Shown here piece after piece: positions 15,771-19,475 of a stretch of 32,000 nucleotides of DNA. The stretch is from contig OZ253496.1 of assembly GCA_965262115.1 (NCBI GenBank), forward strand, positions 875,802 to 907,801. Direction: 5' to 3'. This DNA is from Nitrospinales bacterium (GTDB lineage Bacteria; Nitrospinota; Nitrospinia; Nitrospinales; VA-1). Numbering within the stretch: position 1 is the first letter of the stretch; every line of letters begins with the position of its first letter. The translations under genes and the position numbers were made by a program. The notes under the pieces are model-generated. The model made no database searches. It saw nothing but the letters and a program-made list of their open reading frames with translations, and was not told the origin of the DNA.

Positions 15771-16199
15771 TCATTCAACTTTCACTTTTTTCTGTTCAAA
15801 CAGGGCATCCAAAATAGGGCAATCAGGCACTACTCCCCCTTCACATTTTGAAGAAATTTCAGCCAATATTTTTTCCAGCTTTTTTAAATCCAAAATCTTT
15901 TGATGAATATTCCCCAGGTGATGAAGAGTGATATCTTCCACCTGCTGACAGGTGTAAGCCCCTCCATCAATTAGTTTCAAAAGGGCTCGGATATCCGCAA
16001 GCGAAAATCCTAGTTCCCTGCACCGACAAATAAATACAAGCCGCTTTAAGTGACTTTCACTATAAATCCGGTGTCCACCTTCTGTTCTGGGCGGTTTCGG
16101 GAAGATTTCAATCTTTTCATAATATCTGATTGTTTCGATCTTACAATTAGTTTGCCTGGACAAAAGCCCAATGCTCAAGTTTTTTTCTTGATTTGGCAT
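15771..16199 (-). CDS. MerR-family metal-responsive transcriptional regulator with a three-cysteine site
   Basis: The N-terminal HTH is LSIGLLSRQTNCKIETIRYYEKIEI. It also has GHRIY.ESHL.RL.FI, a coiled coil, Cys84 (DGGAYTCQQV) and the loop Cys119-x7-Cys127-Pro (KCEGGVVPDCPIL). It is divergent from a MerR-type promoter. Confidence 0.88.
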   Translation of the reverse strand: MPNQEKNLSIGLLSRQTNCKIETIRYYEKIEIFPKPPRTEGGHRIYSESHLKRLVFICRCRELGFSLADIRALLKLIDGGAYTCQQVEDITLHHLGNIHQKILDLKKLEKILAEISSKCEGGVVPDCPILDALFEQKKVKVE

Positions 16200-16207
16200 A
16201 ATAATCC

Positions 16208-16241
16208 TTGAACCTGTAGTTACTACAGGTTCTATATTATA
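16208..16241 (+). promoter_or_regulatory. MerR-type promoter/operator with an overlapping divergent -10
   Basis: TTGAAC (16208..16213), a 19-nt spacer and TATATT (16233..16238). The spacer is filled by the palindrome GAACCTGTAGT-T-ACTACAGGTTC (16210..16232, 11-bp perfect arms). On the minus strand, TATAAT (16236..16241) faces the regulator gene. Confidence 0.8.
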
Positions 16242-16309
16242 AATGAATAAAGGATTTCATGGAAAGGTGAATCTAGCCAAAAGACAAATCAAATTTTAAG
16301 GGGACAACT

Positions 16310-17020
16310 ATGGACAACACAAAAATTGACCACGAAATTACATCTGCTTTTGGGCTTGATATCCCCCCAATAGCAATGGCCTTTGTTGATGATCAACCGC
16401 AGGGAGTGGAAACAATCGAGGAAGAAGTTCCGTCCTTTTGTACTTTTTGGCGCATGGCAGAGAAAAAAGCGTTCTATGCCCCGGCAAATAAACATTATAA
16501 CTGCCCCATAGGAGCCATGGTGTTGGGATTCGAGATGCCCAAAGAGGTACAGGAACAATTGGGTGGTTTGGTTAAAAAAATGTGTGAATGCTCTTACTTG
16601 TCAGAAGATGAGCCTGCAAATATTCCTACCCTTACAGAAAAAAAAGTCGGCGTGGTTTATGGACCCTTGAAAGACTTTCCTGTGGAACCGCAATTGATCT
16701 TGATGTGGTTGAAACCCTCACAGGCAATGATTTACAACAAGGTTTTGGGATGCTGCAAATGGTCTGGAAGTATGGATTCTATGGCATTGGGTCGTCCGGC
16801 TTGCGCTGTGATTCCAACGACCTTAAATAAATCACCTTTTGGCATGTCTTTAGGTTGCACTGGAATGCGTACTTTCACTGAAGTCAGTGATGATCATATT
16901 CTGGCTACACTCAATTGCAAAGAAATAGATTCCTTCCTGACCAGTCTCCAAACAACTTTATCAGCGAACAAGGAGATGAAAGAATTCTATTTAGATCATA
17001 AAAAAAATATTACAGGTTAA
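16310..17020 (+). CDS. DUF169 family protein
   Basis: 236 aa with ..PIAMAF......G........SFCTFW..A......YA....HYNCPIGAMVLG and ...GRPACA..P....K.....SLGCTGMR.FTE. This is the pattern I recognise as DUF169/COG2043. RBS AAGGGGA-N5-ATG. Confidence 0.7.
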   Translation: MDNTKIDHEITSAFGLDIPPIAMAFVDDQPQGVETIEEEVPSFCTFWRMAEKKAFYAPANKHYNCPIGAMVLGFEMPKEVQEQLGGLVKKMCECSYLSEDEPANIPTLTEKKVGVVYGPLKDFPVEPQLILMWLKPSQAMIYNKVLGCCKWSGSMDSMALGRPACAVIPTTLNKSPFGMSLGCTGMRTFTEVSDDHILATLNCKEIDSFLTSLQTTLSANKEMKEFYLDHKKNITG

Positions 17021-17075
17021 ATATGGTCCGTTTTCAATTTAAAAGAATTAAAACTTGAATAAAGGAAACAATATT

Positions 17076-17345: not shown

Positions 17346-17373
17346 ATTTTAATTATTTTGGAAGGTTTTTATT

Positions 17374-18006
17374 ATGTCGTTTGTCTACATGAAAATCCTT
17401 GAGTCTCGCCCTGAACGTTACGATATAGGGATGGGTCTTTTGACTCTAGGAACATTGACAAAAATAAAACAGCAGATAGCCGAACATACCCATCCCGGCG
17501 ACCACGTTCTCGATTTAGGTTGCGGTACTGGAACTCTCGCGCAAATGTGTATCGAGCGAGGAGCAATAGTGACAGGAGTAGACACCAATAGCGGCATGCT
17601 AGCAGTGGCAAAGAGAAATTCGCCCTCGGCAAACTACCTTAATATTAGCCTTAGCAACCTCGATGAGCATTTAAGGGATGAATCGTTCGATATTATTTTG
17701 AGCACGCTTGCTTTCAGCGAACTGACCCGTGCCGAACGAATTCATGTATTGAAACAGATCAAAAGAATACTGAAAAATGAAGGGAAAGTTCTTATCGGCG
17801 ATGAAATAATCCCCGAAAACTTTTTTGCCAAATGCTTTTACTATGCCTTCAGGTTGCCTATGCGGCTTCTTACTTGGATTATGACTCAAACCACAACCAA
17901 TGCCATCTCCAGTTTTGATGATGAAGTTCTTGAAGCAGGCATGCAAATGGTCAATCGTAAACCATTTATGCTGGGCATGTTCATTCTTTTAGAAATTAAA
18001 AAATGA
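17374..18006 (+). CDS. Class I SAM-dependent methyltransferase encoded next to the corrinoid protein (CpaM-like by recollection)
   Basis: Motif I is VLDLGCGTGTLA, the post-I acidic residue is VTGVDTN, then DIILSTLAFSEL and LKNEGKVLIGDE. Its stop overlaps the next start (ATGA at 18003..18006). Confidence 0.85.
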   Translation: MSFVYMKILESRPERYDIGMGLLTLGTLTKIKQQIAEHTHPGDHVLDLGCGTGTLAQMCIERGAIVTGVDTNSGMLAVAKRNSPSANYLNISLSNLDEHLRDESFDIILSTLAFSELTRAERIHVLKQIKRILKNEGKVLIGDEIIPENFFAKCFYYAFRLPMRLLTWIMTQTTTNAISSFDDEVLEAGMQMVNRKPFMLGMFILLEIKK

Positions 18007-18872
18007 TTGGCTGGATTAAAGACATATATCAAACCCTTTTTCGGTTTGCCCGATTTCCGTGCGAACCTGAAACAGTGGCTATCGGTAACCCAGACAAATC
18101 TTCTCCCATTCTCGTCACATGCAATTTTGACTATACGGTCAGGCATCTAAAGGAATATTTGAAAAAAGAAGCTTTAGATTGTTTCCTTTTAGTGGTCAAT
18201 ACCCAGGGAACCAATGTCTGGTGTGCAGCCGCCGAAGGTATTTTTACTACCGAAACAGTTCTGGCCCACTTGAAGGTTTACAATGTAGGAGAACTAGTCA
18301 ACCACAATCAGTTAATATTGCCGCAATTGTCCGTGGCTGGAGTTAAAAGAAAAGATCTTAAAGAACAAGGCTGGGAAGGCATATACGGCCCAGTTTACTT
18401 TACTGATTTAAAAGAATTTTTAAATAATGGTTTGACCAAGAACAAGGATATGCAGGCTCTCCAGTACGGTTATTGGGAGCGTTTTAAAATGGGCCTCAGT
18501 CATGCAGTTTTCTGTACGCTAGTCTGTATTCTCCCAATTTTTATTTTTGCTTCCGATTGGTGGATACAATCAGTCGCTCTAGTTTGGTATTTCGCTTTCA
18601 GCATGCAACTGGTTGAACATTTTATTCCCCTCGAAAGATTGCTGCATAAAGGTCTAGTGCTTTCCTTGCCAATTTTAGTCCTTGCACTAACTTCTATTTC
18701 CGATCCTGTTTTGAAAATACAGGCAACGTCTGGAATTATTGCCCTGGGAGCCTATATTGGATATGATGCGCAAGGTCATTCACATTTTGGGCAAAACCAG
18801 CAATCCGGTAAAATTTTTGCCAGAATTTTCGGCTTTTTGGTTCTGGTTTATGGAGGAACATTATTGATATGA
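18003..18872 (+). CDS. HgcA-family corrinoid-binding membrane protein (paralogue; cap-helix Cys conserved)
   Basis: SPILVTCNFDYTV...DCFLLVVNTQGTNVWCAAAEGIFTTETV....V.ELVNHNQLILPQLSVAGV.....L.EQGWEGIYGPVYFTDLKEFL is colinear with HgcA (..SPVLVTANYKLT..LVLDT.GINVWCAAGKGTFGT..HR.LILPQLGA.GV..GPVRA.DLP.FL). About 5 C-terminal TM helices follow. Confidence 0.85.
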   Translation: MIGWIKDIYQTLFRFARFPCEPETVAIGNPDKSSPILVTCNFDYTVRHLKEYLKKEALDCFLLVVNTQGTNVWCAAAEGIFTTETVLAHLKVYNVGELVNHNQLILPQLSVAGVKRKDLKEQGWEGIYGPVYFTDLKEFLNNGLTKNKDMQALQYGYWERFKMGLSHAVFCTLVCILPIFIFASDWWIQSVALVWYFAFSMQLVEHFIPLERLLHKGLVLSLPILVLALTSISDPVLKIQATSGIIALGAYIGYDAQGHSHFGQNQQSGKIFARIFGFLVLVYGGTLLI

Positions 18873-19057
18873 AAAAATATGTAGATTGGGACAAAATAGA
18901 AGAAGATACCGTTTCCGCTGAAGAAGCTTGTGAATGCACGAGAAGCAAATTGCAATCACTGATTGATTTCGTGGTGGAATTATTACCCAAAAAAAAGGAA
19001 TCCTCTTGTTGTGATGAAATGAATCAAGAAGATAAGTGCCGATGCAATGACAGCTGA
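18869..19057 (+). CDS. Small acidic Cys-rich protein (CEC, CC, CRC)
   Basis: 62 aa: ..EEACECTRSKLQ...KKKESSCCDEMNQEDKCRCNDS. An ATGA overlap joins it to the upstream gene, and an 11-nt overlap joins it to the downstream gene. It has no ferredoxin motif. Confidence 0.6.
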   Translation: MKKYVDWDKIEEDTVSAEEACECTRSKLQSLIDFVVELLPKKKESSCCDEMNQEDKCRCNDS

Positions 19058-19475
19058 CACAACAGGAACAGCAAAAAAGATTGTGACTTCCATTTGCCCC
19101 ACCTGTGGTTGTTCTTTAGTTCGGCTGGGAATAGGTTCGGACCGATGGGCACAGACTAATTATGAAGGCAAGGAATATTTCTTTTGTTGCCAAGGCTGCG
19201 CCGACCTGTTTAATGAAGAACCCCCAAGATATCTTCAAGAAACCAAAGATTTGGTGGTGTGTCCGACCTGCTTAGCAGAAAAACCGGTGCAATGGACTGT
19301 GCGTATGGAAATTGCAGGGTGGGAAGCATATTTTTGCCGATGCCCCTACTGCCCGGAAGTATTCCAAAAGGATCCCGATCACTACGTCAAACGTTTACAG
19401 GGTGAGATCCCCTATGATGGCGTGTTCGGTCAAGCTGGATGTTGCTCCTCTGACGAATTCGAGCCGACCAAATAA
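19047..19475 (+). CDS. Tandem YHS/TRASH-type metal-binding domain protein
   Basis: Two units are present: CPTCGC...YEGKEYFFCCQGCADLFNEEPPRY and CPTC......IAGWEAYFCRCPYCPEVFQKDPDHY. The tail is ..GQAGCCSSDEFEPTK. Confidence 0.75.
   Translation: MTADTTGTAKKIVTSICPTCGCSLVRLGIGSDRWAQTNYEGKEYFFCCQGCADLFNEEPPRYLQETKDLVVCPTCLAEKPVQWTVRMEIAGWEAYFCRCPYCPEVFQKDPDHYVKRLQGEIPYDGVFGQAGCCSSDEFEPTK

Follow-up and report, generated by a model that had tools for sequence, protein, structure and literature searches.

In this study, we analyzed a 32,000-nucleotide stretch of the genome of a Nitrospinales bacterium (GenBank assembly GCA_965262115.1, contig OZ253496.1, positions 875,802 to 907,801 of the forward strand; hereafter the window), which carries an operon around an HgcA-like corrinoid membrane protein. 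Comparison with related loci suggests that this operon is probably a ferredoxin-less branch of the methyl-transfer module formed by CpaM and HgcA(B), that it is placed under a mercury-type MerR regulator, and that it carries methyl groups from S-adenosylmethionine (SAM) over a corrinoid to mercury. A preliminary description of the locus, made from the DNA letters, had interpreted it as a metal-inducible corrinoid methyl-transfer system, and that interpretation is partly supported by the results given below.

The Nitrospina HgcA-like locus was first reported from Antarctic sea ice and was later found to be dominant among the hgcA homologues of the global ocean. The window locus is this already known "Nitrospina hgcA-like" gene cluster of marine nitrite oxidizers (Gionfriddo et al. 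2016; Villar et al. 2019/2020; Lin et al. 2023) and is not a discovery. It shares with the published cluster the neighbors MerR, DUF169, a UbiE-like methyltransferase and YHS as well as the lack of an adjacent hgcB, and differs from it in an extra thioredoxin-like (Trx-like) gene that is present in only about a third of the loci. The nearest named relatives of the HgcA-like protein are proteins of Nitrospinaceae metagenome-assembled genomes, and it is 80-92% identical to hundreds of marine metagenome and Nitrospinaceae sequences. Villar et al. (2019 preprint, 10.1101/648329) had drawn MerR1, DUF169, UbiE and YHS beside HgcA-like and proposed a MerR/Hg-dependent regulation, so that the earlier premise that HgcA is not known in a MerR regulon is outdated; the premise of novelty likewise fails, since the locus was published by these authors and by Lin et al. 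(PMC10083202). Lin et al. 2023 (PMC10083202) also found that a neighboring hgcB is lacking in all Nitrospina and placed the Nitrospina sequences in a clade that holds fused HgcAB proteins as well. The literature searched contained no mention of CpaM membership, the small 62-aa open reading frame (ORF), the two MerR/operator types or the adjacency of mer genes. What is added here, on the evidence of sequence comparison, is a definition of the conserved core genes and a firm tie of the cluster to mercury-resistance genes through related loci.

Results

The ORF list confirmed all seven ORFs of the preliminary description, of which the central pair encodes a methyltransferase and the HgcA-like protein. 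The methyltransferase gene (17374..18006, plus strand) encodes a class I SAM methyltransferase of 210 aa that scores 249.1 bits against NF043040, the NCBIfam profile of the corrinoid protein-associated methyltransferase CpaM (cut-off 180), with residues 2-209 covering positions 1-215 of the 216 in the profile. The SAM-binding motif GCGTG at residues 49-53 is invariant in the CpaM alignment. Membership of the CpaM family, which had been suggested before, is verified by the curated cut-off of this profile. We then surveyed CpaM more widely on the basis of the CpaM alignment, taking one genome per species, which gave 24 loci with full-length CpaM from more than 10 phyla. In 23 of the 24 loci, CpaM is either fused to an HgcA-type protein or encoded immediately 5' of an HgcA-type gene, in most cases with an overlap; the exception is L023, where no HgcA-type neighbor was detected beside CpaM. 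The partners in these loci are mostly ferredoxin-fused HgcAB proteins. Several Chloroflexota loci encode CpaM joined to a ferredoxin-less HgcA in one polypeptide of 540-570 aa, and a Desulfobacteraceae locus (L004) has a CpaM::HgcAB triple fusion. When fused HgcAB proteins were looked up from the HgcA side, CpaM was found upstream in three of three. The order of CpaM and HgcA is the same in L003-L024 and L083-L087, and CpaM precedes HgcA-like in all 45 Nitrospinaceae-type loci. The functional pairing of the two proteins that had been supposed from the window is therefore borne out by adjacency in the survey and by natural CpaM::HgcA fusions. Zheng et al. 2024 (PMC11588087) showed for purified canonical HgcAB that SAM is the source of the methyl group, which passes through methyl-Co(III). 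Taken with the CpaM-HgcA pairing, this makes a transfer from SAM via CpaM to the Co(I) of HgcA-like the most economical reading, and by analogy we infer this chemistry for the window.

The HgcA-like gene (18003..18872, plus strand; 289 aa) was assigned with the NF043039, NF040863 and CdhD profiles, an AlphaFold2 (AF2) model and Foldseek. Its match to the CdhD/HgcA Pfam family has an E-value of 6e-16. The best profile is that of the HgcAB-like fusion, NF043039, with 227.3 bits over only positions 1-226 of 350; this is below the cut-off of 285 because the ferredoxin tail is missing, and no Fer4 match was obtained. The protein has the cap-helix sequence NVWCAAAEG with Cys74, and NVWCAA (residues 71-76) is invariant in 30 aligned relatives. 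The AF2 model (30 relatives; predicted local distance difference test score (pLDDT) of 87) consists of a Rossmann-like domain followed by five long predicted transmembrane helices (residues 157-288). Foldseek placed this model closest to the HgcAB model 9a0b_A over its full length (E 1e-11) and next to the corrinoid-binding domains of CFeSP, at 1.5-1.7 Å over about 125 residues. HgcA-like is thus predicted to have a CFeSP-like corrinoid-binding fold and a five-helix membrane domain, the fifth helix standing where the fused relatives run into their ferredoxin domain. In an unrooted neighbor-joining (NJ) tree of 146 columns, the Nitrospinaceae-type proteins form a clade of their own with 100% bootstrap and lie outside both the group of fused and that of canonical proteins. 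Their affinity to the fused clade rests on hidden Markov model (HMM) scores and on Lin et al., not on this tree. One further stretch of the protein, residues 250-268 (window about 18750-18806), has the sequence YIG(Y/F)D(A/S)QGHSH(F/L)GQNQxSGK before the last membrane helix. It is rich in His, Gln and Asp, strongly conserved in the ferredoxin-less clade, and contains in residues 260-265 the only low-confidence stretch of the model. This stretch may be a metal-binding loop.

The ferredoxin motif CxxCxxCxxxC was searched for in six frames, over the 32-kb window and about 406 kb of orthologous loci, and no genuine ORF contains it. The sole match in this search for HgcB was an antisense artefact inside hgcA-like. 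The absence of the motif, which had been noticed for the cluster, holds in this way for the whole window and for the orthologous loci, and no HgcB-type ferredoxin adjoins any of the latter. The profiles, the Foldseek matches to corrinoid proteins and the six-frame search agree with the earlier view of an HgcA-family corrinoid membrane protein without HgcB.

Gene content was compared across about 100 related loci, of which 59 metagenome loci and the genome loci were scored, a gene being counted only in contigs that cover its expected position. Among the Nitrospinaceae-type loci, CpaM was present in 45 of 45, the 62-aa ORF in 44 of 45, the YHS gene in 41 of 41, DUF169 in 34 of 34, MerR in 30 of 31 and the Trx-like gene in 12 of 34. 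Three more distant versions at 56-60% identity (L081, L136 and L137) keep HgcA-like, the small ORF and the YHS protein and are without DUF169. CpaM is kept in L081 and L136, while the short L137 contig does not cover its position; L081 has no adjacent MerR. Since DUF169 is missing at this distance and the Trx-like gene is found in only 12 of 34 loci, the conserved core is, as judged from these gene contents, the four genes for CpaM, HgcA-like, the 62-aa Cys-rich protein and the double-YHS protein, and not six. The "six-gene operon" of the preliminary description accordingly does not stand as a conserved unit. Its expectation of a co-conserved gene set holds for the four-gene core and, within Nitrospinaceae, for DUF169 and MerR, and fails for the optional Trx-like gene. 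The four core genes, which are also the last four of the operon, are translationally coupled as described earlier, by overlapping ATGA sequences at 18003 and 18869 and by 11 shared nucleotides at 19047-19057.

The 62-aa Cys-rich protein (18869..19057, plus strand) has no family match and was recognized by its conservation. An alignment of 31 distinct sequences showed an invariant EACECTRS core and a near-universal vicinal CC, and the ratio of non-synonymous to synonymous substitution rates (dN/dS) was 0.06-0.23 over the first 45 codons. In many contigs, the 62-aa and YHS parts are encoded as a single in-frame protein of 191-192 aa (P0383 in 14 contigs and P0384 in 10 contigs). The conserved core, the low dN/dS and these in-frame fusions indicate that the ORF is a real gene, and on sequence grounds the 62-aa protein amounts to an N-terminal domain of the YHS protein. 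In the window (18869-19475) and most loci, the 62-aa and YHS genes are separate, frame-shifted and overlapping ORFs. Small indels shortly before the start codon of the YHS gene distinguish the split from the fused forms, for which P0379 and L095 (2965-3645) were also compared. In L105, L119 and L120, the small Cys-rich protein encoded downstream of hgcA-like has a duplicated vicinal-Cys motif (SSCCVEISVTENCC).

The double YHS/TRASH-type Cys-rich protein (19047..19475, plus strand; 142 aa) matches Pfam YHS (PF04945) with 50.6 bits against a threshold of 30.3. It contains the motifs CPTCGC...FCCQGC and CPTC...CRCPYC and a C-terminal vicinal CC. Pfam calls only the first YHS domain, and the second was recognized by its invariant CPxC...CRCPxC motif. 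Both TRASH-type motifs and the C-terminal CC are kept in all cluster-linked YHS copies. In HgcB, two [4Fe-4S] motifs are combined with a C-terminal Cys pair, C94/C95, that is needed for methylation (PMC11588087); the two Cys-rich sites and the vicinal pair of the YHS protein would form a parallel layout. The 62-aa and YHS genes were not detected beside any ferredoxin-fused relative examined, and their presence with ferredoxin-less HgcA and not with the fused relatives is the complementary distribution expected of an HgcB substitute.

The operon is preceded by a divergent gene for a MerR-family metal-sensing regulator of 142 aa (15771..16199, minus strand; Pfam MerR_1, 1e-18). The regulator scores 113.2 bits on the NCBIfam CadR-PbrR model, 111.8 on MerR (TIGR02051; equivalog cut-off 150.85) and 111.0 on CueR, all below the equivalog cut-offs. 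Its C84, C119 and C127 align with C82, C117 and C126 of Tn21 MerR, to which it is 32% identical. It is 49% identical, without gaps, to the MerR of the functional mer operon of pMR68, the C-x7-CP loop included; resistance to Hg(II) and phenylmercury has been shown experimentally for that operon (PMC3737084). Reading of the intergenic region gave a MerR-type promoter on the plus strand (16208..16238) with the -35 element TTGAAC (16208-16213), a 19-nt spacer and the -10 element TATATT (16233-16238). The inverted-repeat scan found in the spacer the operator dyad GAACCTGTAG-tta-CTACAGGTTC (16210-16232), a perfect 10-bp inverted repeat. A candidate promoter for the divergent merR gene (16236..16265, minus strand; TTTCCA, 18 nt, TATAAT), which is the best match there in a consensus scan, with 10 of 12 positions, overlaps the operator region as the divergent merR promoter does in classical mer operons. 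These features agree with the divergent regulator and MerR-type promoter that had been described.

The window operator is kept, with two mismatches or fewer, before 24 other orthologous clusters in spite of the divergence of the intergenic sequence around it, so that the dyad is not due to chance. MerR of the window type is divergent and occurs in 23 loci, with the operator TTGAACCTGTAGTnACTACAGGTT; pMR68 has an identical operator core, CTGTAGTTACTACAG, between merR and orf4. A second type of MerR is co-directional with the operon and occurs in 7 loci and in L136. Its best profile is TIGR02051 MerR, with 132-143 bits (cut-off 151), and its operator TTGACC-CTGTAC-TATG-GTACAG...TAAGTT closely resembles the Tn21 merO TTGACT-CCGTAC-ATGA-GTACGG...TAAGGT, a sequence that we verified in R100 and 2,200 other plasmids. 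In both types, each of the three Cys with which Tn21 MerR binds Hg has an aligned counterpart. Two different MerR/operator pairs thus serve the same operon in different Nitrospinaceae lineages, and together with the conservation of the operator this substantiates the control by MerR that had been proposed. Comparative genomics shows the wiring of the operon to MerR, and Hg(II) is the probable inducer on the same evidence.

Mercury genes are linked to the cluster in several related loci. In L136, a merR-merT-merP-merA operon is divergent from the cluster, with MerR-type dyads on both sides. In L119-121, merR-merT-merP (MerT with 96 bits on Pfam, and an HMA protein) directly follows the YHS gene. 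An ORF of the MerT family lies between DUF169 and CpaM in L129 and just upstream of CpaM in L035. On plasmids, the YHS protein has a single homologue, 45% identical and with both motifs, whose gene follows the alkylmercury lyase gene merB2 of pMR68 at a distance of 72 bp. The window itself has no merA, merB, merT or merP, and merB was found in none of the cluster loci. The substrate had been left as a thiophilic metal(loid), and the comparative evidence now points specifically to mercury, which is by far the best candidate in the Nitrospinaceae lineage as far as gene neighborhoods can tell.

Two of the related loci contain further genes near these regions. Between the merRTPA operon and the CpaM promoter of L136 lies an ORF of 376 aa without Pfam match (3685-4815, minus strand), with MerR-type dyads on both flanks. 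L083 carries a set of genes for MerR, a DF-family (seleno)protein, MerC and a Thioredoxin_3 protein (1734-3184), of which the MerR scores 147 bits against TIGR02051, just under the cut-off. This set lies about 2 kb upstream of an operon that consists of an ArsR-type regulator, a 137-aa ORF, a 161-aa ORF, CpaM and fused HgcAB.

The first gene of the window operon encodes a DUF169 protein of 236 aa (16310..17020, plus strand; PF02596, 87.4 bits over residues 10-206, threshold 27) with invariant C44, C65, C165, C183 and H62. Orthologues of about 50% identity accompany CpaM and ferredoxin-fused HgcAB in unrelated organisms, in the arrangements DUF169-methyltransferase-HgcAB (L150/151) and CpaM-HgcAB-P-type ATPase-DUF169 (L142-145), which indicates that DUF169 is an older accessory of the module. 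No sequence match for DUF169 was found in the PDB with the single sequence or a 22-sequence profile, and its AF2 model (pLDDT 87) had no Foldseek match at E <= 0.001, the best TM-score being about 0.23. The P-type (E1-E2) ATPases between fused HgcAB and DUF169 in L142 (4183-6180) and L145 (4983-6995), both high-GC metagenome contigs, are 665-670 aa long and have no recognizable N-terminal HMA domain. The optional Trx-like gene (17076..17345, plus strand) encodes a small thioredoxin-fold protein of 89 aa (Thioredoxin_3, 26.8 bits, cut-off 24.8; Glutaredoxin, 3e-4) with a CPIC motif and the extra Cys pairs CPSC and CC. A TTG start at 17055 is possible, and homologues favor the ATG at 17076. A clear homologue stands beside MerC in L083, and relatives of 40-53% identity occur on plasmids beside heavy-metal regulators.

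The cluster (16000-19000) has a GC content of about 40% (0.40) compared with 45-55% in its flanks, and in another Nitrospinaceae genome (L082) it lies between entirely different genes (SIR2 and an HD-domain protein). The lower GC content and the different flanking genes suggest, and do not show, horizontal mobility of the cluster. No integrase, transposase, flanking tRNA or repeats adjoin it in the window; the tRNAs at 2.9-3.6 kb are 12 kb away. Scans of the window with Rfam and for terminators gave nothing relevant. Beyond the upstream flank, the minus strand encodes a PCYCGC-motif protein (PF13798; 13320-13790), an AhpC/TSA redoxin (12747-13310) and a cytochrome b (11301-12353). L019 likewise has an AhpC/TSA redoxin, which is encoded 3' of the CpaM::HgcA fusion and beside a MerR. 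Directly downstream of the cluster lies a gene for a 270-aa eukaryote-like leucine-rich repeat protein of the LRR_6 type (19676-20488, minus strand), and farther on a 155-aa Ala/Glu/Pro/Lys-rich ORF without family match (21900-22367, plus strand).

Discussion

The window operon combines features of four known systems. With the canonical HgcAB of Pseudodesulfovibrio mercurii ND132 it shares the corrinoid domain with a cap-helix Cys, the membrane domain of five helices and, as the likely ultimate donor of methyl groups, SAM. It differs in that HgcB is missing, a dedicated SAM methyltransferase is present, control is by MerR and not by an ArsR-like regulator or none, and the host is a microaerophilic or aerobic nitrite oxidizer. 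The CpaM and HgcAB-like fusion pair (NF043040/NF043039; Pyrococcus furiosus-type) also has an overlapping CpaM gene upstream, and DUF169 recurs with both; in the window, a fifth helix takes the place of the C-terminal 2[4Fe-4S] domain, the 62-aa/YHS unit is added, and the HgcA-like protein belongs to a separate clade. Classical mer operons (Tn21/R100; pMR68 of Pseudomonas sp. K-62) have the same divergent three-Cys MerR, the promoter with a 19-bp spacer and the dyad operator, whereas the structural genes of the window form a methyl-transfer system and not a reductase or lyase. In the CFeSP/MeTr/RACo system, a separate methyltransferase likewise loads the corrinoid, and the modeled HgcA-like corrinoid domain superposes on CFeSP. 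However, HgcA-like is membrane-anchored, CpaM has a class I Rossmann fold and not the TIM barrel of MeTr, and the window system is without an ATP-dependent activase or Fe-S domain. SAM reactivates oxidized Co(II) in methionine synthase (MetH), and in a MetH-like role it could drive the reactivation of Co(II) to methyl-Co(III) here.

The probable course of events is as follows. Hg(II) or a similar soft divalent metal would bind the three-Cys MerR and activate the 19-bp-spacer promoter at 16208-16238. CpaM would then use SAM to methylate the Co(I) corrinoid of HgcA-like, in which the cap-helix Cys74 would ligate the cobalt. The 62-aa/double-YHS unit, with its vicinal Cys pairs, would pass mercury species to or from HgcA-like, as the C-terminal Cys pair of HgcB does, and transfer of the methyl group to mercury would presumably yield methyl- or dimethylmercury. 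The electrons needed for regenerating Co(I) could be supplied by DUF169, in which four Cys are invariant, by the YHS protein through its Cys4 sites, or by a ferredoxin encoded elsewhere.

Several observations weigh against this course of events. HgcA-like fails the curated cut-off of the canonical HgcA profile NF040863 (134.1 versus 275 bits, over positions 28-197 of 325). Its cap-helix octamer NVWCAAAE, in place of the canonical NVWCAAGK, is not among the high-stringency octamers of confirmed methylators (NVWCAAGK, NVWCASGK, NVWCAGGK, NIWCAAGK, NIWCAGGK and NVWCSAGK; Capo et al. 2022, PMC10087281). No hgcA-carrying Nitrospina isolate exists (PMC12874090), Hg methylation by Nitrospina is stated to be unconfirmed (PMC10083202, PMC12874090), and all tested cultured organisms with fused HgcAB failed to methylate Hg (PMC10083202, PMC10087281). 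The similar scores of the window MerR on the CadR/PbrR, MerR and CueR models leave Cd, Pb or Zn conceivable as inducers. Elsewhere, relatives of CpaM-HgcAB are under TetR or ArsR-type regulators, and mercury may thus be a lineage-specific application of the module. A methylating system beside merA, as in L136, would be physiologically odd. Finally, the ferredoxin-less CpaM::HgcA fusions of Chloroflexota have no YHS or Cys-rich neighbors and lie in heterogeneous contexts, so that a dedicated HgcB substitute is not generally required; this weakens the idea of a substitute and does not remove it. The earlier suggestion that Cys-rich proteins replace HgcB is thus plausible: the presence of the 62-aa and YHS genes in nearly all ferredoxin-less Nitrospinaceae-type loci speaks for it, and the Chloroflexota fusions without them speak against it.

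The same genes could serve other ends. It is fairly improbable that the operon acts on another metal(loid), such as As, Sb, Te, Se, Sn, Pb or Cd, as one case of a general corrinoid-dependent methylase that various metal regulons have taken up. Such a role would account for the ArsR-type and TetR regulators of the relatives, for the P-type ATPase between fused HgcAB and DUF169 in L142-145, for ArsM and TehB being among the nearest families of CpaM beyond its own, and for the equal scores of the window MerR on CadR/PbrR and MerR; the canonical hgcAB of ND132 is itself controlled by an ArsR that responds to arsenic and S-adenosylhomocysteine. However, every identifiable metal gene linked to the Nitrospinaceae-type loci is a mercury gene (MerT, MerP, MerA, or MerR with pMR68- or Tn21-like operators), and no ars, cad or czc genes were seen beside these loci. 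If the metal is mercury, the reaction might run the other way, the Co(I) of HgcA-like taking the methyl group off methylmercury independently of MerB, with CpaM and SAM merely reactivating Co(II) and the YHS unit removing Hg(II). We consider such a demethylation improbable. To our knowledge, no enzyme is known to demethylate CH3Hg+ by means of Co(I). The class I SAM methyltransferases act as methyl donors, and the stoichiometric CpaM::HgcA fusion suggests that CpaM is used in every catalytic cycle and not in occasional repair. Canonical HgcAB, moreover, runs from SAM over Co to Hg (PMC11588087). These points have to be set against the resistance-type mer contexts with merA, merT and merP in which the cluster is found, the position of the sole plasmid YHS homologue 3' of an alkylmercury lyase gene, and the lack of merB in the cluster loci. 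The hosts also live in methylmercury-rich mesopelagic water, where the correlation of hgcA with methylmercury in seawater (Tada et al.) fits a response as well as production.

It is also conceivable, with a quite low probability, that HgcA-like is an ordinary HgcA served by an HgcB-type ferredoxin encoded elsewhere in the genome and that the accessory genes are bystanders of a mer-type island. "Nitrospina-affiliated hgcB" sequences have been reported from the same waters by Tada et al. (PMC12874090), housekeeping ferredoxins are abundant, and the ferredoxin-less versions of Chloroflexota manage without dedicated neighbors. Yet the abundance of hgcB in marine surveys tracks neither hgcA nor methylmercury (PMC12874090), the window and the orthologous loci hold no ferredoxin, and HgcA-like falls outside the canonical HgcA group. 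Bystanders would not be expected to behave like the 62-aa and YHS genes, which are coupled to hgcA-like in translation and remain 100% co-conserved even at 56-60% identity. A function apart from metals is very improbable; the corrinoid would then serve in another methyl transfer or in the reductive dehalogenation of compounds such as halomethanes, and MerR would respond to stress in general. The recruitment of two independent MerR/operator pairs to the same operon, the mer transport genes inside or beside it and the metal-binding Cys motifs in which all accessory proteins are rich are difficult to reconcile with such a function, although a 2026 preprint reports dechlorination of CCl4 by HgcAB and the tested organisms with fused HgcAB do not methylate Hg (PMC10083202, PMC10087281).

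Methylation of mercury by the MerR-controlled CpaM and HgcA-like pair therefore remains the reading that we favor. In a bolder form, which we regard as unlikely, the 62-aa/double-YHS unit would be an oxygen-tolerant replacement of HgcB and CpaM would supply the methyl group of SAM, so that aerobic or microaerophilic Nitrospinaceae would methylate Hg under MerR control, possibly to volatile dimethylmercury as a route of detoxification for which ArsM provides an analogy. If this bolder form is true, it would explain the maxima of methylated mercury in oxic subsurface ocean water; it would also explain the inactivity of fused HgcAB, if the operons were assayed uninduced or regardless of CpaM.

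In metagenomes of the open ocean, no other hgcA homologues are as abundant and widespread as the hgcA-like genes of the Nitrospina type, which are routinely counted as mercury methylators in marine surveys although they lack the partner regarded as indispensable. If the system described here methylates Hg, Nitrospinaceae would be supported as a source of methylmercury in the ocean; if it works as a demethylase or on another metal, a large amount of survey data on marine hgcA would have to be reinterpreted. The core of CpaM, HgcA-like and the 62-aa/YHS unit, the mercury-type operators and the repeated links to mer genes turn what has been a correlation into a defined experiment.

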